Shown: positions 1-29,138, counted from the first letter of the stretch. The stretch is 64,000 nt of DNA from an uncultured Eubacteriales bacterium (GCA_964602455.1 CAZRRG010000002.1:1100-65099), one strand, 5' to 3'. The notes: generated from the sequence alone by a model not told the origin. Program-made: numbers and translations.

Positions 1-631
1 GGTGGAATATGGCGCCCATGTTGTCGAGACTGGTCGCAAGCACGTTGTCAGCGGCGATGAACTGGGGGAAAGCCGTGCGGACCAGGTCGAGAACGTCATC
101 GGTCCTATAAGCCGGTAGAGCCGCAAGCGACACGTGCTTCTTTATCCCGTAGATGTGGGAGACCCCGGGTTCCACAGTCCTGCTGGCGAAGATGAAGGTG
201 TTTGTCTCCGCCACGGTGACGTCGGCACGGCAACCTGCACGTTCCAGGTTGGCACGGAACGCCAGAGCCCCTCCGGTCCTGCCCGGGTTCAGGACGACCA
301 CCTGGCCGTCAACCAGATTCGGCGCAAGCATCTTCGCAACGTCTCTATGCCCCGAGGCCGGCACCGTGACCATGACCACATCGGCGCCACTGCATGCTGC
401 GGCTATATCCCTGGTCACGACCACCGGAACGCCAACGCCCTCGTTCGCTCCGTGAAGGCGTATGCCGCCCCTGGAGTTAATCGCGTCGACCTTTTCCGGC
501 GACCGGTTCCACAGCTTTACCCTAAAGCCGTGGAGAGCCAGGTATCCGGCCATGGCCTGCCCGCCGTTTCCAATACCCAACACAGTAAATGACGGAGCGC
601 CCGCAAAGACCCTTCCATCGTGAATAGTCAT
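1..631 (-). CDS. Opine (octopine/nopaline) dehydrogenase-family NAD(P)-dependent oxidoreductase, N-terminal part (C-terminus lies beyond the window start)
   Basis: My own translation of the minus strand: MTIHDGRVFAGAPSFTVLGIGNGGQAMAGYLA... It has a Rossmann GxGxxG motif, and 'LNPGRTGGALAFR' and 'TSLDNMGAI' resemble Arthrobacter opine dehydrogenase. Its ATG overlaps the upstream gene's stop codon (ATGA). Confidence 0.6.
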   Translation of the reverse strand, partial: MTIHDGRVFAGAPSFTVLGIGNGGQAMAGYLALHGFRVKLWNRSPEKVDAINSRGGIRLHGANEGVGVPVVVTRDIAAACSGADVVMVTVPASGHRDVAKMLAPNLVDGQVVVLNPGRTGGALAFRANLERAGCRADVTVAETNTFIFASRTVEPGVSHIYGIKKHVSLAALPAYRTDDVLDLVRTAFPQFIAADNVLATSLDNMGAIFH

Positions 632-1596
632 GAAGCAGCCCTCCTTTGTAGCGCACCCTCCAGCACTCGCTCCACGAGCGACCGGAACGGCATCCCGCAC
701 TTCTCCGCCATGCGGGGAAGCTCGCTGTAGCCCGGCATCAAGCCGGGAAGAGTGTTAATCTCAAGGACGTAAGCCTTGCCTTCGGGCGATACCCTGATGT
801 CTACCCTTCCAACGTCGGTGCAACCGACGGCCTTGAAGGTCCTAACCGCCAGGTCCTGAATCTCCGTCGCCAGCTCGGCCGGTATATCTGCAGGACACAC
901 CGGCACAACGGCGTCGCGCGACTTGACGTCGTAGGTGTACATGCCGCCCTTCTTGAACACGATCTCCTCGACCGGCAGAGCCTGCGGCTCAGGGTACCCG
1001 ACAATGCCGACGGTGAACTCCCGCCCGCTGATGTACTCCTCCACCAACACCGTGCCGTAGATGTCCGCTATCAGTCTCACCTGCTCGACGGCCGCGTTAG
1101 CATCCGCAACGACGCTCTTTTCCGAGATACCTACACTGGAACCCTCGGCAGCAGGCTTTACGATGACCGGATATGTCAGACCGGATAGGGCATCAGGCTC
1201 CAATGCATCTGGGTCCTCGATGACTCTGAACCTGGGGGTTGGGATCCCGTGTATGCCCATGATGGCCTTGGTCAGGTGTTTGTGGAGGCCCAATACGTGA
1301 CCGCGGGTTCCGGAACCCGTGAAGGGGTAGCCTGCCATCTCGAGCAATGCGGCTACGTTGGCCTGGTCCCTTTTGGAACGGTAGCCGGTAGCGAGGTTAA
1401 AGACTGCGTCAGGATTGGCCTCGCTCAGCCGGTGCAACAGAGACGGCCCTACCTCCACCAATGTAATCTTGTGGCCCAGCTCGCCGAGCGCTTTGCAGAC
1501 AGCGCCGGCAGTCACAGAGGACTGCTCTTCGGCGTGCGGGTCCTGGTCGTAGAAGGGTGAGTTCCTCCGGTTGACCACGACGCAAATGTGCGGCAA
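628..1596 (-). CDS. D-alanine--D-alanine ligase family ATP-grasp protein (divergent paralog)
   Basis: The C-terminal half is Ddl-like (EEYISGREFTVGIVG; VLEINTLPGLMPGYSELPRMA). The N-terminus lacks the canonical GGxSxEHxVS motif. The likely start is a TTG 6 nt after a GGGAGGAA RBS (the ORF could extend to 1656). Confidence 0.7.
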   Translation of the reverse strand: MPHICVVVNRRNSPFYDQDPHAEEQSSVTAGAVCKALGELGHKITLVEVGPSLLHRLSEANPDAVFNLATGYRSKRDQANVAALLEMAGYPFTGSGTRGHVLGLHKHLTKAIMGIHGIPTPRFRVIEDPDALEPDALSGLTYPVIVKPAAEGSSVGISEKSVVADANAAVEQVRLIADIYGTVLVEEYISGREFTVGIVGYPEPQALPVEEIVFKKGGMYTYDVKSRDAVVPVCPADIPAELATEIQDLAVRTFKAVGCTDVGRVDIRVSPEGKAYVLEINTLPGLMPGYSELPRMAEKCGMPFRSLVERVLEGALQRRAAS

Positions 1597-1898
1597 AGGG
1601 CATTCCTCCCAGAAATGTTGTTCCAGCAGGCGCAACAAGGTAAGCCGCGGCCTCAAGAAGGCAATATCTTGAAAGACCGCGTGCGGTGTGTGACCGGGAA
1701 GAGGCTCTTACGGGGCGAAAACGCCACGGGACGAGGCCGCCTTCCCTTTCGACGCTTACGAGGTTAGCTGACGGGCTCGGGCTGAAAAGGATTAGCCCTA
1801 CGCGAGGCGCGATTAGCCCCTAAGAAGTGGGTCCCCCGTTCCCCCTGTGGCAGGGAGATTCAGCGATAAGGCGCGTACAACGCTGCTGGTCAAATTCC

Positions 1899-5125: not shown

Positions 5126-7696
5126 CTACATAAGGCAGTTGAACAGGAACTTGAACGTGCCGTGGGCTTGCGCCCTGAACTGCGTCCTGAAGCCGATGAG
5201 GACTACCTCGCCCTTACCGCACTTGGCGGCCACCATGCACGGCTTGCCAGCCAGCTTCTCGCTGCCGATAAGCCACCCGCTCTGCAGGAGGTCCGTCTGC
5301 GGGTACTCGGCGACAATCCTGTAGTCATCAGCCCTATCCATCTCGGTGATCTCGAATGTCGGGCTCCCCATGTTCAGCACCAGGGCGTTCTCCGGCATCC
5401 CGTATGCGAGAGGATCGCTGTTGTTCACCTTCACGTGCAGCGTGGAGCCGTTGCAGTAGAAGTCCCTCCAACTGGAGTTGGCGACGACGTTGCGCACCTT
5501 GAGGCCGCAGGTGTCGATTGCCCAATCGGAGGACGTGTCCATGGCCACAAGCCTGCCGCCCGCCTTCACGAACTCTGCGACCGCGTTCTGTCCTTCCTTG
5601 CCCAGCCCGCTCCTGTACTCCGGCGGCAGGTTTGGGAGCGGCCAAGCCCTGGCGTTGGGATTGGTCTCGGGAACGTTGTCGGGACCCATGAGCAACCTGG
5701 TCCGGTCTCCCGGTATGATGAGCACGTCAAGTTTCTCGGCGAGGTTGCCGCTCTTAATGTCGGCGTCCATCACAGTCACGTACGGCACCTCAAACTTGTC
5801 GAAAACGTAACGGGTCCAGCCCTCGTCCATGTTCCCGCCCCAGTACCGCTGGTACATGCCGATGCGCAGGGGCTTAAGCTCATGCTTGGCGACCTCCGGT
5901 AGTCCGCTCACGGGCATGAACGGCACGCCGGTCTCGCTCGCGAGGCCCGCGATGACTTCCTTGTACTTGGGAGCGTTCTCAACGTAGAAGGCGCCTGCTA
6001 CTGGAGCGCAATCGCACGAGGATCCGTTCTCGCACACCTTCATCGGACCATCCAGCCGCCAGAACTTGGCGCCGTTCTTCTGCAGGCGGTTCACTGCGAG
6101 ATAGGTATCATTGAGCCTCGGGTCCAGGAGGTATCCTGCCGCCTCCTTGACCTCCACCCTAGGTCTGGAGACCTCCTTAACCACCTCGTACTCGCACTCA
6201 AACCTGTAATCGATGGCGGCCACGTTGACACCCATGAACTCGCCGATCGTGTCGGTCGCGGTATCGTACATAATGGGGGAACCGTCAGGATTCCTGGTCC
6301 AGTAACTGTCGGGATAGAAGGTCCTCCCCAGCAGGAACCTGAGAACGCCCATCTTTGGCTGGTCCATCGTGAGGAAGTAGGTCCCGGCCGGGAAGACCTT
6401 GCCGCAGGCGCGGAACTCCTCCTTTGCTATCTTCACTTCGGCGCCTTGAGCCAGCATCAGTTCGACCAGCTTCAGGGCTGTGAGCGGGTCGTTGTTCTTC
6501 TCCGGAGTGATGGCGAAGGCGTAAGGCTTGCCCTCCCTACCCCTTTCGGTCTGGCGGGACGCCTTCAGATACGCGTTCCACAGAACCTTCTCCTTGTACT
6601 TTGCGCAGATGTCCAAGAGGGCCCAAGCGGCGATCTTCTGCTGTTCCACGATATCCCTGAGACGCCACCACCCGCCCGGCCAGGGATGCGGGAAGTTGGT
6701 CTGGGCTTCATACTTGGGCATGGTCTTCTGGCTCGCGCCGCGGAGCTGGTGCGGGTGGACGTACATCGGCGTGGCGAGTTTGGCGCTAGCCGACTCTGTC
6801 AGCATGCCCGCGATGTTGTGGTGGGTCGTGATCCAGTGGAACCCGAAGTGGCCCCATCCGGGGTACTGGGCGCCGTTGAGGATGCCGGTCTTGCCTTTTT
6901 CCTCAAGGGTGTACGCCATATGGGCGCCGAACCAGGAATCTTCGCGCCAGACCAGGGGATCGGCGTGGGGACGGATGGCGTCGGAGTACGGCGCAAGGAA
7001 CAGGCGAGCCCCGTAGGGCCCCATATGGTGATGGTCCTGGTAGGCCTGAGGATGCCAGTCGGTGTACAGCAGCTTGGCCATGTAACGCGACTCGGGAAGA
7101 TTCAGAGCGAACGCGTCGCGGTTGTTGTCGTGTCCGGCATACTTCTGGTAGAGGAAAGGCGTGCTGCAGCCTTCCCACTCGGTTCCCAGATACTTGTTGT
7201 ACCAGTCGGTGACCATGATCTGGCCGTCGGGGTTGAAGCAGGGGACCATCAAGAAGATGACGTTGTCCAATATCCTCTTGTTGTCCTCACAGTCGCAAGC
7301 CAGCAGATCGTAAGCCAGCTCCGGAGCCATCTGGGTGCCGCCGATCTCGGTCGCGTGCAGACTCATGCTCTGGCAGACGACCGCCTTTCCCTCCTTAACG
7401 AGGGCCTTGACCTCATCTTCGGTGAGCCCCCGCGGGTCCGCGATCTTGCCGTTAATCTCCCGGTGACGCTCCAGGTTCGCGAGGTTCTCGGGAGACGAGA
7501 TGATGGTCAGTAGGAAGGGATTGCCCTCCGTAGAGGGTCCCATGTCTGTGACCTTAATCGCATCGGACTCGGACTCAAGCTTGTGGAAGTACTCGACGAT
7601 CTTGTCCCAGCGGGCCATCTTCCTATCGGAACCCAACCTAAACCCAAAGAACTCTTCCGGAGAGGTGATCGTGGGTCGCGGAGTCTTTGCGGCCAT
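5126..7696 (-). CDS. M14-family zinc carboxypeptidase, large (856 aa), predicted cytoplasmic
   Basis: HATEIGG (HxxE) and NPDG motifs. ATG start with an AAAGGAG RBS. Confidence 0.7.
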   Translation of the reverse strand: MAAKTPRPTITSPEEFFGFRLGSDRKMARWDKIVEYFHKLESESDAIKVTDMGPSTEGNPFLLTIISSPENLANLERHREINGKIADPRGLTEDEVKALVKEGKAVVCQSMSLHATEIGGTQMAPELAYDLLACDCEDNKRILDNVIFLMVPCFNPDGQIMVTDWYNKYLGTEWEGCSTPFLYQKYAGHDNNRDAFALNLPESRYMAKLLYTDWHPQAYQDHHHMGPYGARLFLAPYSDAIRPHADPLVWREDSWFGAHMAYTLEEKGKTGILNGAQYPGWGHFGFHWITTHHNIAGMLTESASAKLATPMYVHPHQLRGASQKTMPKYEAQTNFPHPWPGGWWRLRDIVEQQKIAAWALLDICAKYKEKVLWNAYLKASRQTERGREGKPYAFAITPEKNNDPLTALKLVELMLAQGAEVKIAKEEFRACGKVFPAGTYFLTMDQPKMGVLRFLLGRTFYPDSYWTRNPDGSPIMYDTATDTIGEFMGVNVAAIDYRFECEYEVVKEVSRPRVEVKEAAGYLLDPRLNDTYLAVNRLQKNGAKFWRLDGPMKVCENGSSCDCAPVAGAFYVENAPKYKEVIAGLASETGVPFMPVSGLPEVAKHELKPLRIGMYQRYWGGNMDEGWTRYVFDKFEVPYVTVMDADIKSGNLAEKLDVLIIPGDRTRLLMGPDNVPETNPNARAWPLPNLPPEYRSGLGKEGQNAVAEFVKAGGRLVAMDTSSDWAIDTCGLKVRNVVANSSWRDFYCNGSTLHVKVNNSDPLAYGMPENALVLNMGSPTFEITEMDRADDYRIVAEYPQTDLLQSGWLIGSEKLAGKPCMVAAKCGKGEVVLIGFRTQFRAQAHGTFKFLFNCLM

Positions 7697-9199: not shown

Positions 9200-10672
9200 A
9201 TGCCTTCACGGAGCGAGACGGAGAACATAGACCAGGAAGAAACCCAGGTACAGGTGCAACCCTCACCCGGAGAGATTCCATCTGCGTCCGTTGCTGAAGA
9301 GGCGCCGCGGCAGCGCAGGGCCAGGAGAATAGACCTCAGCAGCCACACCGTCGAGCAGAACATCTGGATACTGGCCGGCCCGCTAATCGCCGAGAGACTC
9401 CTCCAATCGCTAGTCGACTCCGCCGACATGGCCATGGTAGGCCGGGTAGGAGCATCCGCGGTGACGGCTGTCGGCCTTTCAAACCAGATCTCCATGATAG
9501 CCACGGGGTTCTTCGACGCCATCAGAGTCGGCACAACATCGGTAGTAGCGCGCCGTGTGGGCGCAGGACGGAACGACGAAGCCCAGCGGGCGCTGCGGCA
9601 GTCCTTACTCGTCGCCGCCGCTATCGGCATCATCTCTTTCCTGCTCTTCTCGGTTTTCTCCGGCACCTGCCTCAGGCTAATGGGGGCCGAGCCCGACGTC
9701 ATCACCCAGGGAACCAGGTACTTCTGGTGGAAGGGCCTCTCGCTGGTATTTGAGTACATCACGATGACATTCGCGGCGGGCTTGCGAGGATCGGGCAACA
9801 CCAGGCTGCCCATGTGGGTCGGAATGGTGGTCAACGGTCTCAACCTAGCCGGCAACTACGTCCTGATCGGCGGCAACCTCGGATTCCCCCGGATGAACGC
9901 AGAGGGCGCGGGCCTGGCAACCGCTTTCGCACGGTTCATCGGGATGATGATAATAATCCTGCTGACGACCACTCAGGCCAATCCTCTGAAAGACTGGCTA
10001 AAGGGTTCGTTCGGCCCCGACCGCGAAGCCCTCGGCAGTGTCCTTCGCATCGGCGTCCCGGCCTCAGGTGAAAGGCTTACCCTCCGCGGAGCCCAGCTCC
10101 TCTACACCAGGGCCATCGCCGGACTGGGAACCGCTGCATACGCTGCTCACCAGATAGCGCTGCGAACAGAGTCGATATCGCTAGTGCTTGGCTTCTCCTT
10201 CGGCGCTACGGCGACCACTCTCGTCGGGCAGTACTTGGGAGCGAATGACCATGAGAAGGCTGAAAGGGCTGCGCGGAAGTCTCAGCAGATAGCGACTGTG
10301 GCCATGGCGTGCGCCGGCGTCCTTCTGTTCATCTTCGCTCCGGTGATCGTGAGGCTGTTCATCCCCGACAATCCCGAGGTCGTAGCGCTGGGCGCCAGCG
10401 TTGTTAGGATCGTCGCTGTGGCGCAGCCGTTCATGGCCATCAACCACGTCCTCGCGGGCAGCCTGCGGGGCGCGGGCGACACGGCATGGGTTATGTACAT
10501 CACGGGCGCCAGCGCTTGGGCAGTGAGAGTCGTCCTTACCTACCTTCTGGTGGGAAGCTTTGGTCTGCACCTTCAGGGAGCCTGGTACGCCATGGTTCTG
10601 GACCTCGTCTTCCGCTCCGTCCTGTTCAGGTGGAGGTTCGGGACGGGAAAGTGGAAAGAGATACGGGTGTAG
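9200..10672 (+). CDS. MATE family efflux transporter
   Basis: 12-TM NorM-like sequence with a GAGGA RBS. Antisense ORFs over it are ignored. Confidence 0.8.
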   Translation: MPSRSETENIDQEETQVQVQPSPGEIPSASVAEEAPRQRRARRIDLSSHTVEQNIWILAGPLIAERLLQSLVDSADMAMVGRVGASAVTAVGLSNQISMIATGFFDAIRVGTTSVVARRVGAGRNDEAQRALRQSLLVAAAIGIISFLLFSVFSGTCLRLMGAEPDVITQGTRYFWWKGLSLVFEYITMTFAAGLRGSGNTRLPMWVGMVVNGLNLAGNYVLIGGNLGFPRMNAEGAGLATAFARFIGMMIIILLTTTQANPLKDWLKGSFGPDREALGSVLRIGVPASGERLTLRGAQLLYTRAIAGLGTAAYAAHQIALRTESISLVLGFSFGATATTLVGQYLGANDHEKAERAARKSQQIATVAMACAGVLLFIFAPVIVRLFIPDNPEVVALGASVVRIVAVAQPFMAINHVLAGSLRGAGDTAWVMYITGASAWAVRVVLTYLLVGSFGLHLQGAWYAMVLDLVFRSVLFRWRFGTGKWKEIRV

Positions 10673-23502: not shown

Positions 23503-24021
23503 CTACTTGTTCTTGCGGTAAGGAATAACGCCGCCCACTACGTCCTTGGTCTCCAGCACGGTCACGAAGGACCCGGGCGAGAACTCATCTATCAATGAAG
23601 TTAGCCTGGGCAGGGTCTTTCTATCCGTTGACACAAGGAGCACGGCCTTGGCGCCAGTCATGCCTTGGCCCTGCAGCACAGTGACTCCGTAACCGGTAGT
23701 TCGAAGCGCCTTGAGGAGATCGTCGGCGGTCCCGTTCGACGGGATCACTTGGCAAGTCACCTGGCCTATGGCCAGCCGCTCCTCGAGATAGCCGCCAAGT
23801 AGAGTGCCGGATGCAAAGCCCAGGCCATAGGCCAGGACCTTGATGGGATCGGAGATGTTCTGCATTATCCTGGACAACGCCACAATGTAGATGGTGGCTT
23901 CAACAAAACCTACTGCCGCGGCAGGGTACTTCTTCCCCCGCACGACCAAAAGCATTCTGACCGTGGCAAGGCTTACATCGAGAACCCTGGCACAAAAGAT
24001 CAGGAGGTATTCGCCGATCAT
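23503..24021 (-). CDS. DUF2179/UPF0316 (YitT-related) membrane protein
   Basis: Three N-terminal TM helices plus a DUF2179-like C-terminus. Confidence 0.6.
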   Translation of the reverse strand: MIGEYLLIFCARVLDVSLATVRMLLVVRGKKYPAAAVGFVEATIYIVALSRIMQNISDPIKVLAYGLGFASGTLLGGYLEERLAIGQVTCQVIPSNGTADDLLKALRTTGYGVTVLQGQGMTGAKAVLLVSTDRKTLPRLTSLIDEFSPGSFVTVLETKDVVGGVIPYRKNK

Positions 24022-24471
24022 TTACAGGACCTTTTCCTCGACCATCAGCGAGTGAAGCTTGTCGAGCGAGGCGCCTAGTTGCTCGATCTCGTTGGGTGTC
24101 AGCTTCTCCAGCATTGACGCCACATATCGTCGCCGGGCGGCAATAACCTCTTTGATGACGTCCTGTCCTTTCTCGGAAATGGAGAGCCTGATAACGCGAC
24201 GGTCTTGGGCATCCCGGTTTCGCTCCAGGAAGCCGTTCTTCTCCATCCTGTCGATCAGATCCGTTGCCGTCGAGCAGGCCAGGAAGAGCTTCTCGCACAG
24301 CTCGCCCATCGTCATATTGGGCTGCTCTCGAAGAGCAAGCAGGGCATTGAACTGAGGGCTGGTAATACCGAAGTCAACGAGGATATCCCGTCCCCGCTTC
24401 TTGATTATGAACGCCACGTGCCTCAGCAGGCGCTCAATCTTGGTAACCGAATCATTCAGCGCGTCGGGCAC
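24022..24471 (-). CDS. MarR family transcriptional regulator
   Basis: Winged HTH: LTSPQFNALLAL...MTMGELCEKL. Confidence 0.85.
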   Translation of the reverse strand: MPDALNDSVTKIERLLRHVAFIIKKRGRDILVDFGITSPQFNALLALREQPNMTMGELCEKLFLACSTATDLIDRMEKNGFLERNRDAQDRRVIRLSISEKGQDVIKEVIAARRRYVASMLEKLTPNEIEQLGASLDKLHSLMVEEKVL

Positions 24472-24676
24472 AGTAGGGCACCTCCTAGACGGAACGAAGC
24501 GGCAGTCTGCATTCTCCTCCCTGCCTAACTAAGAATAACAGCCGATGTACCATCTGTTCAAGTGCGGCGCTCTCCTTGTGGCAAACCACATCCATTTGCG
24601 ACTCTGTCTAGCTGAGGTCGGGGATGGGGACACTTAGACAATGGAGGTGGCTTTGTTGAACGCGAAGACGACCAGC

Positions 24677-24826
24677 TGGACAACGGTTGGAGTAGGCACT
24701 CTCGTATCTGCGGTAGGTCAGATGATGCATACTCCCCTGGGTACCGATATCCTCGGTTTCGGCCTAGCCCACATCATGTTGGGCCTTCTCGACATGGCAA
24801 GGCCAAGCACCCGCAGGCGGTCCTAA
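24677..24826 (+). CDS. Possible small hydrophobic protein (~50 aa), uncertain
   Basis: GGAGG then TTG start, followed by a rho-independent terminator at 24860-24893. Confidence 0.2.
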   Translation, partial: WTTVGVGTLVSAVGQMMHTPLGTDILGFGLAHIMLGLLDMARPSTRRRS

Positions 24827-24859: not shown

Positions 24860-24893
24860 GGTCGCATGAAGCGACCGGCTTTCTTTTTCTCTT
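24860..24893 (+). terminator. Rho-independent terminator
   Basis: GGTCGCatgaaGCGACC followed by GGCTTTCTTTTTCTCTT. Confidence 0.45.
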
Positions 24894-24899
24894 AAGTTA

Positions 24900-24950
24900 T
24901 TGACATATGCCGAAAACGGGATATGATAACGGTGTAAATGGCATATGTCA
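24900..24950 (+). promoter_or_regulatory. sigA-type promoter (TTGACA-16-TATGAT) embedded in a perfect 11-bp inverted repeat (TGACATATGCC-N28-GGCATATGTCA), a candidate operator
   Basis: The left arm overlaps -35 and the right arm sits just upstream of the RBS of the DUF5320 gene. Confidence 0.55.
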
Positions 24951-24973
24951 TAAACCAATAGGAGGTGACATTG

Positions 24974-25231
24974 ATGCCCGGAAGAGACGGAACAGGACCA
25001 CTGGGTTGCGGCGCAATGACGGGAAGAGGCCTGGGAGGTTGCTTGGGAGTGCAGTACGGCAGGGGTGTATACGGTGGACGGCGTGGATGCGGCACCGGAC
25101 GCGGCCTCGGCCTTGGCAGATTCCTCGCGGCAGGTCAGATGCCATCCAGGCGGGAAATCCTCAACGATGAGAAGGAGAGACTCGAACAGAGGCTCTCGAT
25201 CGTGACCAAGAGCCTAGAGAATCTGGAGTGA
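24974..25231 (+). CDS. DUF5320 small glycine/arginine-rich protein with C-terminal coiled coil
   Basis: MPGRDGTGPLGCGAMTGRGLG...GRGLGLGR...EKERLEQRLSIVTKSLENLE. ATG 8 nt after AGGAGG. Confidence 0.7.
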   Translation: MPGRDGTGPLGCGAMTGRGLGGCLGVQYGRGVYGGRRGCGTGRGLGLGRFLAAGQMPSRREILNDEKERLEQRLSIVTKSLENLE

Positions 25232-25292
25232 CCAAAGTGAAAGCCATAGGAGAAAACTCCTTTGGCTTTCGCTCTGAAATTGGGGTGATCGA

Positions 25293-25664
25293 ATGCCCAG
25301 ACCGCGGAAGTGGAGAAAGGTCTGCCGCCTGCCGGGGAACGCCCGTTTCGGGCCGTTAGGCGGCATGAACAACGCAAGCGACGTGGTCACAATGTCGGTG
25401 GACGAGTACGAAGCGATACGTCTCATTGATACGGAAGGCTTCACACAGGAAGAATCCGCTCAACAGATGAACGTGGCCCGTTCCACAGTTCAGGGAATCT
25501 ACGATAGCGCCAGGAGGAAGCTGGCCGATTCCCTGGTCCACGGAAAGGTCCTGGTCATTGAGGGCGGAGAGTACATCCTCTGCGACGGGCTGGAAGAGTC
25601 CTGCAGATGCGGTGGCTGCTATAGGCACCGGCATGGCCAAGGGGCACGATGGGACGGTAAATAG
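25293..25664 (+). CDS. DUF134/UPF0251 predicted DNA-binding protein with a Cys-rich C-terminal tail
   Basis: MPRPRKWRKVC...VDEYEAIRLIDTEGFTQEESAQQMNVARSTV. Confidence 0.75.
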   Translation: MPRPRKWRKVCRLPGNARFGPLGGMNNASDVVTMSVDEYEAIRLIDTEGFTQEESAQQMNVARSTVQGIYDSARRKLADSLVHGKVLVIEGGEYILCDGLEESCRCGGCYRHRHGQGARWDGK

Positions 25665-25680
25665 CGAAGGAGGAATCTGC

Positions 25681-26070
25681 ATGAAGGTCGGTATTTCCAG
25701 CAGCGGAAAGGACAGCTCGGCTATGGTGGACCCCCGCTTTGGCCGCTGCGAGTTCTTCGCAATATGTGAGACTGATGATGGCTCCTACCGGTTCATTAGG
25801 AACAATGCTCAGGACGCTGGAGGCGGAGCGGGCATAGCCGCGGCCCAGCAGTTAATTGACGAGAATGTTGAGGTAGTGTTGACCGGGAGCTTGGGTCCTA
25901 ACGCATACAGGGTGATCGAGAGCGCCGGAATAAGGGCCTACCGCGTCGGCAGTGTAGCGCTTGAGGAAGCGGTCAACCTCTTGAGTGGCGCGAAGCTGGA
26001 GGCGATTCTCGAGGCGGGCCCTGCGCATGTTGGCGTGCGGCAGGGTCCTCGCGGAGGTCTTAGTAAGTGA
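25681..26070 (+). CDS. NifB/NifX-family (dinitrogenase FeMo-cofactor-binding domain) protein
   Basis: MKVGISSSGKD...FGRCEFFAICE. GAAGGAGG RBS. Confidence 0.8.
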   Translation: MKVGISSSGKDSSAMVDPRFGRCEFFAICETDDGSYRFIRNNAQDAGGGAGIAAAQQLIDENVEVVLTGSLGPNAYRVIESAGIRAYRVGSVALEEAVNLLSGAKLEAILEAGPAHVGVRQGPRGGLSK

Positions 26071-26900
26071 ACCTTTGTGTGCTCAGCGGAAAGGGCGGCA
26101 CGGGCAAGACAACCGTTGCGGTGAACCTGGCCGTACTGCTGAAGGCTGAGTACTACGATTGCGACGTCGAGGAGCCAAACGGGTTTCTCTTCCTGAGGCC
26201 CGCCGGAGTTAAGGCGGAGCATACGGTTGTGGACTACCCATCTATTGATCAGTCCAAGTGTACGTTGTGCGGACAATGCGCGCGGGCATGTCAGTTCAGC
26301 GCCCTCGCCTCCACGAAAAAAGGCGTGATCCTTTTTGAGGGTCTGTGTCACGGCTGCCACGCCTGCGAAATCGTGTGTGAGCCAAAAGCCATATCCTTCG
26401 AGAAGCGCTCCGTCGGCGTGGTCGAGAGAGGAGAGGGACTCGGCATCCTCTGCGCGCGGGGAGTGCTCAACGTGGGCGAGCACATGGCTGTTCCTGTTGT
26501 AAGGCACCTGCTTGCGGGTCTCCAAGAGTCCCGAAACGCGATCCTCGACTGCGCTCCCGGTACCTCCTGTAACGTCGTGAACACGCTCCGGCACGCGGAC
26601 ACAGCCCTTATCGTTACAGAACCTACTCTGTTTGGATTACACGACATGGCGATTGCCGTGGAGCTCTTAAGGCAAAGAAACATCCCGTTCGCCGTAGTCC
26701 TCAACAAGAGCCAAGACAATGATGACATCATAACCCGGTACTGCGCTGATAACGGCATCAAAGTGCTGGGCCGAATCCCCTTTTCCCGCATTGCCGCCCA
26801 AGAGTACTCCAAAGGCCGGCTCTTAATCGATCTACCCGATTACCGGCAAGTGTATGAACACATCGCCAGTGAGGTTAGGGAGGCATTTCCATGGAGCTAG
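26067..26900 (+). CDS. MinD/Mrp-like P-loop ATPase with an inserted 2x[4Fe-4S] ferredoxin domain
   Basis: Deviant Walker A GKGGTGKTT. CTLCGQCARAC and CHGCHACEIVC (CxxCxxCxxxC, two copies). GTGA start/stop overlap. Confidence 0.85.
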   Translation: MNLCVLSGKGGTGKTTVAVNLAVLLKAEYYDCDVEEPNGFLFLRPAGVKAEHTVVDYPSIDQSKCTLCGQCARACQFSALASTKKGVILFEGLCHGCHACEIVCEPKAISFEKRSVGVVERGEGLGILCARGVLNVGEHMAVPVVRHLLAGLQESRNAILDCAPGTSCNVVNTLRHADTALIVTEPTLFGLHDMAIAVELLRQRNIPFAVVLNKSQDNDDIITRYCADNGIKVLGRIPFSRIAAQEYSKGRLLIDLPDYRQVYEHIASEVREAFPWS

Positions 26901-27748
26901 CGGTCTTGAGCGGCAAGGGCGGAACCGGCAAAACGATGATCACCGTTGCTCTGGCGGAGTTGTTCCCCAAAGCGGTGATAGCAGACTGCGACGTGGATGC
27001 GCCCAACTTGTACCTGTACTACAACGGTAAGGACATCAAGAGTGAGCCCTTTACCGCCTCTCAGAAAGCCGTGATCGCCAAAGAGTCCTGTATAGGATGC
27101 GGTATTTGCGATGAGATCTGCCGGTTTGATGCGATAAGGGACCACACCGTCGACGAAGCCAACTGCGAAGGCTGCGGAGCATGTGTCCTGGCCTGTCCGG
27201 AGAAAGCCATTCATCTAAGACCTCAAAAAGATGCGGATGTCTTTCTCACGCAGACCAAGAAAGGCGTGCTTTCCAGGGCGAAGATGGCTGTGGGCAGTGA
27301 TGGTTCCGGAAAACTAGTTTCGCTCCTTAGAAAGAACGCCCGCGAATACCCCGATGATGAGAGCGTGATGCTCCTAGACGGTTCACCAGGGATCGGTTGT
27401 CCTGTCATATCCTCCATTACCGGAGCCAGTATGGCGCTAATCGTGACCGAGCCGACGCTATCCGGGATGGAGGACTTCATCAGAGTGGTGGACCTGTGCG
27501 ATCACTTCAGCATCCCGGCGGTGGTCTGCATCAACAAGTGGGATATCAACCCTGAGGTAACTGATGAGATAAAGCGCCGCTCCCAGGAACGAGGAATACC
27601 GGTTGTCGGTGAAGTACCTTTCGACCAAACGGTCACGGACTCCATTAACACTCTGCAGCCCATCACCGCCTATCCCGACAGCGCTGCTTGCAAAGCTGTC
27701 CTGGAGATGTGGGGCCGTCTGCAAGAGGTGATCGCTGAGGTTAAATGA
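26891..27748 (+). CDS. MinD/Mrp-like P-loop ATPase with a 2x[4Fe-4S] ferredoxin domain (tandem paralog)
   Basis: GKGGTGKTM. CIGCGICDEIC and CEGCGACVLAC. Overlapping start. Confidence 0.85.
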   Translation: MELAVLSGKGGTGKTMITVALAELFPKAVIADCDVDAPNLYLYYNGKDIKSEPFTASQKAVIAKESCIGCGICDEICRFDAIRDHTVDEANCEGCGACVLACPEKAIHLRPQKDADVFLTQTKKGVLSRAKMAVGSDGSGKLVSLLRKNAREYPDDESVMLLDGSPGIGCPVISSITGASMALIVTEPTLSGMEDFIRVVDLCDHFSIPAVVCINKWDINPEVTDEIKRRSQERGIPVVGEVPFDQTVTDSINTLQPITAYPDSAACKAVLEMWGRLQEVIAEVK

Positions 27749-27796
27749 GATGAGGAACGGCGTGGCTCACGATGATTCACGAACAGGAAAGGCGGA

Positions 27797-28141
27797 TTGG
27801 ACGACATGATGAAGATTGCGGTGGCAAGCGACAGATCCATGGTGACGGAGCACTTCGGGCATTGCGAGGCCTTCAACATCTACGAGGCCGAGGACGGCAA
27901 GATCGTGAGGAGCGAGTCCGTTCCTAATCCGGGACACAAGCCGGGGTTCTTGCCCAATTTCCTGAACGACATGGGCGTCAAGGTGATCATCTCAGGCGGC
28001 ATGGGCGGCGGGGCTGTCAACATTTTCAACGAGAAGGGCATTGAGGTCATCGTCGGCGCGCGGGGAAGCGCGGAAGCGGCTGTGAAGGACTACCTGGAAG
28101 GTAACCTGCAGTCCACCGGGACGATCTGCCACGAGCACTGA
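27797..28141 (+). CDS. NifB/NifX-family FeMo-cofactor-binding-domain protein (second copy)
   Basis: KIAVASD...EHFGHCEAFNIYE. Confidence 0.8.
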   Translation: MDDMMKIAVASDRSMVTEHFGHCEAFNIYEAEDGKIVRSESVPNPGHKPGFLPNFLNDMGVKVIISGGMGGGAVNIFNEKGIEVIVGARGSAEAAVKDYLEGNLQSTGTICHEH

Positions 28142-28159
28142 TCCACACTGACCCCCATA

Positions 28160-28200
28160 GAAAGCAGAAAACACTAGAAGCCCCCGATTGGGGGCCTCTT
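28160..28200. terminator. Terminator hairpin GCCCCCgattGGGGGC. It is T-rich on the minus side, so it probably ends ssrA, and may also end the plus-strand operon
   Basis: Stem-loop plus flanking T runs. Confidence 0.45.
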
Positions 28201-28229: not shown

Positions 28230-28576
28230 TGGTGGAGGCGGAGGGAATCGCACCCTCGTCCGTTGATAACCCAGTCTCAGTCTCTACGAGCGTATCTCCG
28301 GATTTGATCTCGCCGACCGCAGCGCCCCGGAGCGGGCTCTACGTTCCGCCAGCCCGGAATTGCGTTCCCTTGAGGGTCCCGGACGTCCCCCTCAAGGTAT
28401 CTCTCCTAGGTGACGGTGACTCCGGGATAGGAGAGAAGTCTCCCGGCTCACCGGGCTGCCTAATTAGGCAGCCAGTGCGTAACTGTTGTTGGCAGTTATG
28501 GTTTTGCCGTTTGTTGGGTACGGCACCCATGCTCGCTGCTCAGACCCGACTACCAGCGTCGAACCTGGTCGCCCCC
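28230..28576 (-). ncRNA. ssrA: tmRNA (SsrA)
   Basis: Minus-strand 5' end GGGGGCGACCAGGTTCGACG and 3' end GGACGAGGGTGCGATTCCCTCCGCCTCCACCA. Internal tag ORF GGC AAA ACC ATA ACT GCC AAC AAC AGT TAC GCA CTG GCT GCC TAA, with the stop inside a hairpin. It lies immediately downstream of smpB. Confidence 0.85.
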
Positions 28577-28673: not shown

Positions 28674-29138
28674 CTAGAGCTTGCCCCTTGCGGCGCGGTC
28701 TCCCTCGCGGCGGAGTTCCCTATCGCGGATCGCCTCGCGCTTGTCGTAGATCTTGCGGCCCTTCGCCAGCGCCAGGTCAACCTTGGCCTTTCCATCCTTC
28801 CAGTAGAGGGACAGCGGCACCAGAGTGTAGCCGCGTTCGGCCACCTTGGCAGCCAGCTTGCGGATCTCGCGCTTGTGCAGGAGAAGCCTCCTTGGCCGCA
28901 TCGGGTCGTGGTTGAACCGGGAGGCGGGCTCGTACTGGTCAATATGGGCGTTTTGAAGAAACACTTCACCGCCGACGATCTCGGCGTAAGCGTCGGAAAG
29001 GCTGGCGCGGCCAAGCCTAAGCGACTTGACCTCGGTACCAATGAGGGCGATGCCTGCCTCGATGGTGTCCTCGATGGTATACTCGTGCCGCGCCCTGCGG
29101 TTCTGCGCTATGAACTTGCGGGCAGATTCCCTATCCAT
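28674..29138 (-). CDS. smpB: SsrA-binding protein
   Basis: GTEVKSLR...LLLHKREI. Confidence 0.95.
   Translation of the reverse strand: MDRESARKFIAQNRRARHEYTIEDTIEAGIALIGTEVKSLRLGRASLSDAYAEIVGGEVFLQNAHIDQYEPASRFNHDPMRPRRLLLHKREIRKLAAKVAERGYTLVPLSLYWKDGKAKVDLALAKGRKIYDKREAIRDRELRREGDRAARGKL

Follow-up and report, generated by a model that had tools for sequence, protein, structure and literature searches.

We describe here an operon of six genes at positions 24974-28141 of a 64,000-nucleotide stretch of DNA from an uncultured Eubacteriales bacterium (below, the window; all coordinates count from its first letter). The four core genes encode two NifX-like proteins and two MinD-like ATPases with ferredoxin domains and, as judged from gene content and order, are a variant of the known and partly characterised ORP system of Desulfovibrio. 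The arrangement as a whole is probably best explained as an ORP module that is repressed by one of its own products, a small protein of the DUF134 family, through two palindromic operators, O1 and O2, that overlap the promoter. The evidence comes from the position-by-position similarity of the core proteins to a Desulfovibrio locus, from the conservation of the operator upstream of DUF134 genes, which extends to hundreds of gene clusters related to this one, and from the recurrent fusion of DUF134 to NifX-like domains. The regulatory layer, consisting of a putative DUF134 autorepressor, a double palindromic operator, a proposed coupling to NifX-like sensors and an intercistronic hairpin, appears to be undescribed.

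The ORP-type core of the operon

The genes all lie in the same direction, and the following features were obtained from a listing of open reading frames (ORFs) and from hidden Markov model (HMM) scans.

24960-24965: ribosome-binding site AGGAGG of the DUF5320 gene
24974-25231, plus strand: DUF5320 protein, 85 amino acids (PF17253, E = 1e-13, 52.7 bits against a gathering score of 27)
25293-25664, plus strand: DUF134/UPF0251 protein, 123 amino acids (PF02001, E = 1e-21, 77.8 bits against a gathering score of 27)
25681-26070, plus strand: NifXa, an ORP/MTH1175-type Nitro_FeMo-Co domain protein, 129 amino acids (PF02579, E = 3e-24)
26067-26900, plus strand: MinDa, a MinD/ParA-type P-loop ATPase with an inserted 2x[4Fe-4S] ferredoxin domain of the Orp3/Orp4 type (CbiA/ParA and Fer4)
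26891-27748, plus strand: MinDb, a second, paralogous MinD/Fer4 ATPase (CbiA/ParA and Fer4)
27806-28141, plus strand: NifXb, a stand-alone Nitro_FeMo-Co domain protein, 111 amino acids (PF02579, E = 3e-24)

The domains that an earlier note on this DNA had assigned to all six genes were thus confirmed by the scans. Its description of overlapping start and stop codons applies to the NifXa/MinDa junction, which is the only one with a GTGA overlap (26067-26070), and to the MinDa/MinDb junction with its overlap of 10 nt (26891-26900), but the remaining junctions are gaps of 17-61 nt, with the start of NifXa 17 nt past the DUF134 stop codon. The translations of MinDa and MinDb, which are 34% identical to each other, each contain the sequence GKGGTGKT and two CxxCxxCxxxC motifs. 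Among solved structures, NifXa is closest to TM1290 (2e-18), MTH1175 (1.7e-17) and the ORP of D. gigas (2WFB, 2.7e-12), and NifXb matches PH0822 and TM1816, while sequence searches found no solved structures for the DUF134, DUF5320 and MinD/Fer4 proteins. NifXb further aligns with the C-terminal Di-Nase domain of MrpORP (NCBIfam NF041136, positions 264-365, 2e-33), which has a Pro/His-rich motif similar to its NPGHKPGFLP, and it also contains an HFGHC motif; its score against the whole MrpORP model, 116 bits, is far under the 450-bit cut-off.

ORP homologues were retrieved with the D. gigas sequence, and the locus of Desulfovibrio sp. X2 was used for comparison. Its gene order is a sigma-54 PAS activator, two small ORFs, ORP, MinD/Fer4, MinD/Fer4 and a NifX-like gene, and the core proteins of the window match it as follows.

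NifXa and X2 ORP: 34% identity, 2e-12
MinDa and the first ATPase of X2: 38% identity, 9e-62
MinDb and the second ATPase of X2: 40% identity, 2.5e-75
NifXb and the second NifX of X2: 39% identity, 2.5e-18

Each of the four proteins finds its best match at its own position in the X2 locus, and for the two ATPases these positional best matches are reciprocal. Because of this position-by-position correspondence, the NifXa/MinDa/MinDb/NifXb core is, by sequence comparison, an old collinear ORP module in a compact, anaerobe-specific Bacillota version.

The statement in the earlier note that no member of this gene combination is experimentally characterised is therefore wrong for the core genes, since the ORP module of Desulfovibrio has already been studied, including Fe-S clusters reconstituted on its proteins and a Mo-Cu cluster. 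In D. vulgaris, Orp3, Orp4, Orp5, Orp8 and Orp9 were pulled down as a complex, in which ferredoxin-type motifs are found in Orp3/4 and Orp8 has homologues that harbour a Mo-Cu sulfide cluster, and Orp9 (MrpORP) binds Fe-S clusters and passes them to Orp3/4 of the complex in vitro (PMC6345978). Expression of the orp genes requires sigma-54, integration host factor (IHF) and the activator OrpR (PMC3897727, PMC8359166), and OrpR senses the redox potential via a [4Fe-4S] cluster (PMC8359166).

The window and the complexes of D. vulgaris Hildenborough, D. gigas and D. alaskensis have the same protein families in common, that is, an ORP-type NifX protein, two tandem MinD-like ATPases with two [4Fe-4S] motifs each and a second NifX-like (Di-Nase) domain, together with the gene order of the X2 locus and a distribution restricted to anaerobes. 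There are also differences. MrpORP is an Mrp/NBP35-family Fe-S carrier with a C-terminal Di-Nase domain, whereas in the window the Di-Nase part stands alone as NifXb. The 64 kb have no P-loop/CXXC carrier domain, and tblastn found no nifH, Mrp or metallo-β-lactamase (MBL) homologue in them. In place of divergent operons dependent on sigma-54, OrpR and IHF there is a single operon with a sigma-70 promoter and putative DUF134 operators, no enhancer-binding protein gene lies beside it, and the window adds DUF5320 and DUF134 to the core, whereas the Desulfovibrio locus lacks both DUF134 and the palindrome described below. The Mo-Cu/Fe-S content and the physical complex have been established for the Desulfovibrio proteins only (PMC6345978).

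A DUF134-anchored scan of species-representative genomes yielded 80 loci, from Christensenellaceae, Oscillospiraceae, Desulfosporosinus, Syntrophomonas, Selenomonadaceae, Dehalobacter and others, with the closest relative in a Bacillota metagenome-assembled genome (90% identity). Both MinD/Fer4 paralogues were present in 47 of the 72 DUF134-anchored loci that had at least 3 kb of downstream sequence, and 46 of these 47 also had NifXa; a DUF5320 gene lies beside DUF134 in about half of the loci. Most relatives have genes inserted between MinDb and NifXb. These encode an MBL-fold protein and an Mrp/NBP35 ATPase whose N-terminus is rich in Cys, joined in some cases by a C_GCAxxG_C_C protein. In 13 loci the NifXb-type match, in the last gene, lies in an ORF of more than 1 kb, corresponding to an Mrp-NifX protein of about 400 amino acids and consistent with an MrpORP-like fusion. 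The window and its closest relative represent a minimal version without Mrp.

The Nitro_FeMo-Co domain is common to NifX, NafY and NifB, and the genes could for that reason be read as accessory factors for the biosynthesis of the FeMo-co of nitrogenase. This reading is very improbable and was rejected, as the window has no nifH homologue (in agreement with the absence of nitrogenase from this region noted earlier), the NifX equivalog model TIGR02663 gives 17 bits against a cut-off of 112, with the NifB equivalog likewise far under its cut-off, and the module is found in non-diazotrophic contexts across Bacillota and Desulfovibrio. What the core does share with NifX, NafY, NifB-C and VnfX is the family PF02579 and its non-covalent binding of metal-sulfur clusters; unlike those proteins, the domain here comes without nif genes and adjoins, or is fused to, a DNA-binding module. 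We know of no report of a NifX-family domain attached to such a module.

A second alternative, first put forward for the ORP complex of Desulfovibrio, is that the module is mainly a MinD-like positioning or cell-division device with the Fe-S and NifX-like parts as redox inputs. Both ATPases have the deviant Walker A motif of MinD/ParA, and it has been reported that cells lacking orp expression have morphological defects, that MrpORP is located at the poles and that Orp3/4 have amphipathic helices at their C-termini (PMC6345978, PMC3897727). However, the ATPases score only 41 and 56 bits with the minD_arch model against a cut-off of 201.75, no MinC or MinE genes lie beside the cluster in any locus examined, and the genes that are adjacent or co-regulated in relatives are of Fe-S biogenesis types (Mrp/NBP35, NifU-like, cysteine-desulfidase-like, C_GCAxxG_C_C and HdrD-like). 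The same neighbours support the link to Fe-S clusters or other metalloclusters that had been proposed from the domain composition. On balance we lean towards a role of the core in cluster trafficking and find division-site positioning unlikely.

The operator pair and its conservation

Upstream of the DUF5320 gene, the promoter and the two predicted operators are arranged as follows (no strand is assigned to the operators).

24900-24927, plus strand: sigma-70-type promoter, TTGACA (24900-24905), 16-nt spacer, TATGAT (24922-24927), 11 of 12 consensus positions
24897-24916: predicted operator O1, TTATTGACATATGCCGAAAA, covering the -35 hexamer
24935-24954: predicted operator O2, TAAATGGCATATGTCATAAA, with the right half matching the consensus

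The earlier note placed the promoter inside a perfect 11-bp inverted repeat. Promoter and repeat are indeed present, the arms being TGACATATGCC (24901-24911) and GGCATATGTCA (24940-24950) with a 28-nt spacer, and the repeat can be extended to arms of 16 nt that are 88% complementary; judged from the related loci, it is nevertheless better described as two copies of a 20-bp palindrome, TTATTGACATATGTCAATAA. The left half of O1 reproduces the palindrome consensus TTATTGACAT|ATGTCAATAA exactly, and the palindrome itself consists of two inverted -35-like hexamers, TTGACA-TA-TGTCAA. O2 begins 7 nt past the -10 hexamer and covers the region from the predicted transcription start (about 24934) to about +20, with its centre 38 bp from that of O1.

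Within the 64 kb the motif occurs at this promoter only, and a 13-mer with up to three mismatches is not enriched (7 matches against 3.9 expected). By our own arithmetic, about 0.6 perfect 11-bp inverted repeats with a spacer of up to 40 nt are expected by chance in 64 kb, so the repeat taken alone is not significant, and its significance comes from conservation across loci. A chance repeat was ruled out by that conservation and not by statistics within the window.

In 44 related loci the same -35/-10 arrangement is kept together with two boxes that are centred on CATATG and spaced by 38-39 bp, at positions of about -70 and -32 relative to the start codon; the flanks of the boxes are almost invariant (TTATTGACATATG...TATAAT...CATATGTCAATAAC). 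The boxes are variably degenerate copies of TTATTGACATATGTCAATAA, and in some loci they are perfect. With at most one mismatch, ATTGACATATG has 170 sites in 820 kb of loci, and 124 of these lie within 520 bp upstream of DUF134, where we estimate that fewer than one such site would be expected by chance. Counted by locus, a site is present within 900 bp upstream of DUF134 in 72 of 78.

An unbiased metagenome scan for the exact 20-mer gave at least 120 loci. A DUF134 or DUF5320 gene begins within 550 bp downstream of the 20-mer in 82 of the 120 matches listed, and 14 more have a NifX-like, MinD/Fer4, Mrp or C_GCAxxG gene beginning in that stretch, which brings those directly upstream of DUF134/DUF5320 or ORP-module genes to 96 of the 120; several of the remaining 24 listed matches are cut by contig ends. 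The DUF134 proteins near exact 20-mers are only 36-68% identical to the copy in the window (median 51%), which means that conservation of the operator extends to widely divergent members of the family. DUF134 is accompanied by the motif also in places without adjacent ORP genes, and the Desulfovibrio locus that lacks DUF134 has no copy of it. Many lineages in the metagenome scan have a single palindrome, either at the -35 position or immediately after TATAAT, and every one of these arrangements overlaps the core promoter and, as far as position can tell, fits the geometry of repression. We found no published account of this operator, literature matches being incidental mentions or primers containing NdeI sites.

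The repeat might instead be bound by another regulator, either the MarR protein, whose gene lies on the opposite strand some 430 bp upstream (24022-24471, minus strand), or a global factor of the Fur, Rex or Rrf2 type, with DUF134 as mere cargo. MarR proteins bind palindromes, and Fur-like genes lie near some of the sites (loci L028 and L111). Among the 80 loci, however, a homologue of this MarR gene is found beside the cluster only in the closest relative (L001), and the operator is present in 72 of 78. In the window, the MarR gene is set apart from the operator by a further small ORF and a terminator. MarR was rejected as the protein of the operator, the gene not being conserved with it. As for regulators in general, the palindrome tracks DUF134 in the unbiased scan, including DUF134-NifX fusions that need no partner, and to our knowledge it is unlike the consensus of Fur, PerR, Zur, Rex, NsrR or IscR. 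We consider control by another regulator very improbable, while the comparative evidence, together with the fusions described below, makes it quite likely that DUF134 binds the palindrome. This supports the earlier proposal that the operator is a dedicated one and that DUF134 is the candidate for its repressor.

Further sites in relatives precede a second ORP cluster, an HdrD/CCG-type Fe-S oxidoreductase gene (Desulfosporosinus), a NifU-like gene paired with a cysteine-desulfidase-like one, and Mrp genes. In Desulfosporosinus, the operator pair also lies before a gene of the HdrD/CCG type encoding about 540 amino acids, and DUF134 is separated from the ORP-type gene by a NifU-like gene; the observations on additional sites come from loci L014/L016/L017 (about 5436-5480), L047 and L067 (both about 10530-10630) and L069 (about 10045-10090). 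The additional operator sites in Desulfosporosinus suggest a wider DUF134 regulon. A perfect 20-bp palindrome also occurs, without DUF134 nearby, between hydrogenase-maturation-like genes (HypC/HypA-like and a maturation protease-like ORF) in L150 (about 2421) and L185 (about 416), and these two could be chance occurrences or another member of the regulon.

DUF134 and its fusions to NifX-like domains

We found no published functional study of DUF134 or DUF5320, only incidental mentions. The DUF134 protein of the window scores 62.6 bits with the NCBIfam equivalog PRK04217, under its cut-off of 115, and has weak matches to Sigma70_r4/ECF HMMs. In an AlphaFold (AF2) model based on 42 homologues, residues of about 31-89 are predicted with confidence (block-mean predicted local distance difference test [pLDDT] of 86-93), and residues of about 36-83 model as a helix-turn-helix (HTH) of the sigma-region-4/LuxR-like type, with a core that superimposes on region 4 of extracytoplasmic function (ECF) sigma factors and on the HTH of GerE/LuxR and DeoR with 0.5-0.9 Å over about 46 residues. 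The tail contains the pattern C97-x6-C104-x-C106-x2-C109, and Cys11, Cys97, Cys104, Cys106 and Cys109 are conserved in at least 90% of close homologues.

A fold like that of sigma region 4 and a -35 hexamer in each half-site would also suit an activator, or a sigma-like specificity factor that recruits or replaces sigma-A at the TTGACA boxes, and the orp genes of Desulfovibrio are positively controlled (PMC8359166). However, a promoter this close to the consensus (11 of 12 positions) would be expected to be strong on its own, and DUF134 lacks sigma region 2 and cannot be a sigma factor alone. In addition, the sole palindrome of many lineages lies directly past the -10 hexamer over the start site, where the clade of the window has its second box, which is the geometry of a roadblock. 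Positive control by DUF134 is for these reasons improbable, and from the placement of its putative sites we think that DUF134 probably acts as a repressor.

In the role proposed here, DUF134 would resemble OrpR (DVU2106), which is a dedicated, autoregulated regulator encoded in the cluster. Both proteins have conserved Cys residues, and those of OrpR couple orp expression to redox or Fe-S status (PMC8359166). The two proteins are not homologous, OrpR being an AAA+ activator of sigma-54 that works at a distance with IHF and has a [4Fe-4S] PAS domain, whereas DUF134 is an HTH protein of 123 amino acids with putative sites that overlap the core promoter, which implies repression. Under the proposed model, DUF134 would work like the small Cys-ligated regulators IscR, NsrR and RirA (Rrf2 family) and the WhiB-like proteins, which control Fe-S genes and are autoregulated through palindromes overlapping their promoters; unlike those, DUF134 has a sigma-4/LuxR-like HTH and not a winged helix, and a cluster on DUF134 is only proposed.

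A DUF134 profile search of 1.84 billion representatives gave 2,981 clusters at E <= 1e-10, and among the best 150 of these, 30 are at least 215 amino acids long. Of ten such long representatives scanned against Pfam, nine are fusions of DUF134 with a Nitro_FeMo-Co domain, and by BLAST at least 24 of the 30 have a C-terminal domain of the NifXa or the NifXb type. In raw metagenome DNA, 26 uninterrupted ORFs for DUF134-NifX fusions lie directly behind the palindrome (for example, L139 4871-5647, L116 4370-5170 and L158 280-1068). The fusion proteins often have long His/Cys-rich tails (such as CDHHEHHDGDCGHDHCAEHHC) and often lack the C-x6-C-x-C-x2-C tail of the stand-alone DUF134. Since the fusion recurs with both types of NifX paralogue, these gene structures are strong evidence that the HTH and the NifX-like domain work together, and the NifX-like domain is likely to be a ligand sensor.

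The intercistronic hairpin, the flanking genes and a model of the operon

The DUF5320 protein, encoded first in the operon, has a conserved N-terminal motif, MPxRDGTGPxGxGxMTGRGxGxC, followed by a Gly/Arg-rich middle and a coiled-coil tail. Between its gene and DUF134 the earlier note had seen an imperfect hairpin at 25236-25265, which proved to be real and larger.

25233-25276, plus strand: RNA stem-loop between DUF5320 and DUF134, 20-bp stem

The minimum free energy is -32 kcal/mol over 79 nt (z = -4.6), and equivalent stems of differing sequence are found in most loci that have DUF5320. In an alignment of 16 loci, 86% of the cells pair as against 41-54% in slid controls, compensatory changes are seen in 12 of the 15 pairs, and the observed covariation score was reached by none of 500 shuffles. 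We take the element to be real because both covariation and pairing exceed the controls. Only an inner 5-bp version is flagged as a terminator, with the weak tail TTGGCTTTCG, and no Rfam family was matched in the operon at the gathering threshold.

In the X2 locus, the two small ORFs upstream of the ORP gene (L081 6059-6900) have some features of their own. The one of 168 amino acids is weakly NifX-like with a tail rich in Cys and in Gly/Arg, and the one of 112 amino acids has a Gly/Arg/Gln repeat with Cys that is reminiscent of the middle of DUF5320 and occupies an analogous position. An identity of these ORFs with DUF134 or DUF5320 was rejected, there being neither Pfam support nor a BLAST match.

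Two further hairpins flank the operon.

24860-24886, plus strand: terminator-like hairpin and T-tract, stem 24860-24876, tail GGCTTTCTTT
28176-28199, no strand assigned: GC-rich hairpin between the 3' end of the operon and the convergent tmRNA gene

The first, going by its stem and T-tract, is a predicted terminator that ends the preceding small ORF and shields the operon from upstream transcription. That ORF (24641-24826, plus strand) lies between the MarR gene and the operon and encodes a hydrophobic protein of 61 amino acids without a Pfam match. The closest relative (L001) has it with 93% conservation, and no copy was found elsewhere. The MarR gene is followed by one for a DUF5698/DUF2179 (YitT-like) membrane protein (23503-24021, minus strand), and the pair is divergent from the ORP-type operon and is not kept beside it in other loci. 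The second hairpin is probably a bidirectional terminator for the transcription units of the operon and of the transfer-messenger RNA (tmRNA) gene, which lies directly downstream in convergent orientation (28230-28576, minus strand; Rfam RF00023, 146.7 bits) and is followed by an SmpB-like ORF (28674-29138, minus strand). Elsewhere in the window, a cyclic di-AMP riboswitch (ydaO/yuaA leader, RF00379, 90.3 bits) is found at 1737-1875 (minus strand), upstream of an ORF at 628-1656 (minus strand).

In the model that we propose, the two NifX-like proteins, one of the ORP type and one of the type of the MrpORP C-domain, would bind metal-sulfide clusters and, by analogy with Orp3/Orp4/Orp8/Orp9, would probably form with MinDa and MinDb an ATP-dependent complex acting on Fe-S or heterometal clusters. 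DUF134, presumably as dimers, would bind O1 and O2 and repress the operon including its own gene, with O1 occluding the -35 hexamer and O2 covering the predicted transcription start. TTGACA is the hexamer read by sigma region 4, and its presence in each half-site would make direct competition of DUF134 with sigma-A at O1 a natural mechanism. Metallocluster, heterometal or redox status would relieve or strengthen the binding of DUF134, and the sensor may be the Cys cluster of DUF134, a NifX-like partner (the adjacent NifXa or, in many lineages, the fused domain) or both. The stem-loop after DUF5320 would probably uncouple the mRNA level of DUF5320 from that of the downstream genes, either by partial termination or as a 3' stabiliser, although it may also be a processing element or a site for a protein.

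Several points weigh against this model. The link between DUF134 and the operator, drawn from co-occurrence in genomes, is correlative. The 38-bp spacing of O1 and O2 corresponds to about 3.6 helical turns and is not obviously in phase for cooperative binding, and the U-tract after the intercistronic hairpin is weak. The Foldseek E-values for DUF134 are weak (0.05-0.4), the domain being small, and the Cys regions of its model are of low confidence, with pLDDT values of 45-67 at the N-terminus and 36-60 from residue 91 on. In distant operator-linked homologues the Cys positions are conserved at 48-83%, and the DUF134 of the window has Ser55 (25455-25457, first HTH helix) at a position that is Cys in at least 90% of close and 72% of distant homologues, a substitution that may affect Cys-based sensing in this protein. 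The window furthermore lacks the Mrp partner of most relatives, and its complex may be incomplete or served in trans. Lastly, a role in cell division has been proposed for ORP complexes. Sensing of a cluster or metal by DUF134 is a possibility that we put forward with some reserve.

A broader and more tentative suggestion is that DUF134 with a fused or adjacent NifX-like domain constitutes an unrecognised, widespread metallocluster-sensing transcription switch; the DUF134 family comprises about 3,000 clusters at 50% identity. In such a switch, an HTH on inverted -35 hexamers would compete with sigma-A, repression would be set by whether the NifX-like domain and/or the Cys cluster carries an Fe-S or Mo/W-S species, and an anaerobe-specific regulon would cover ORP, Mrp, NifU-like and HdrD-like genes. 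If true, a binding domain of the nitrogenase-cofactor type would here be seen for the first time as the sensor of a transcription factor, and the switch would give a handle on the in vivo ligand of the ORP proteins.

More than two decades of work on the ORP complex of sulfate reducers have not led to a defined function. Our findings place its four-gene core widely in Bacillota under a different, simpler and very well-conserved regulatory circuit, whose motif is precise enough to define the regulon genome-wide and from it to infer what the ORP system serves. The fusion of DUF134 to NifX domains implies that NifX-like proteins can be regulatory ligand sensors, which bears on Fe-S and heterometal homeostasis in strict anaerobes, including the Clostridia of the gut.

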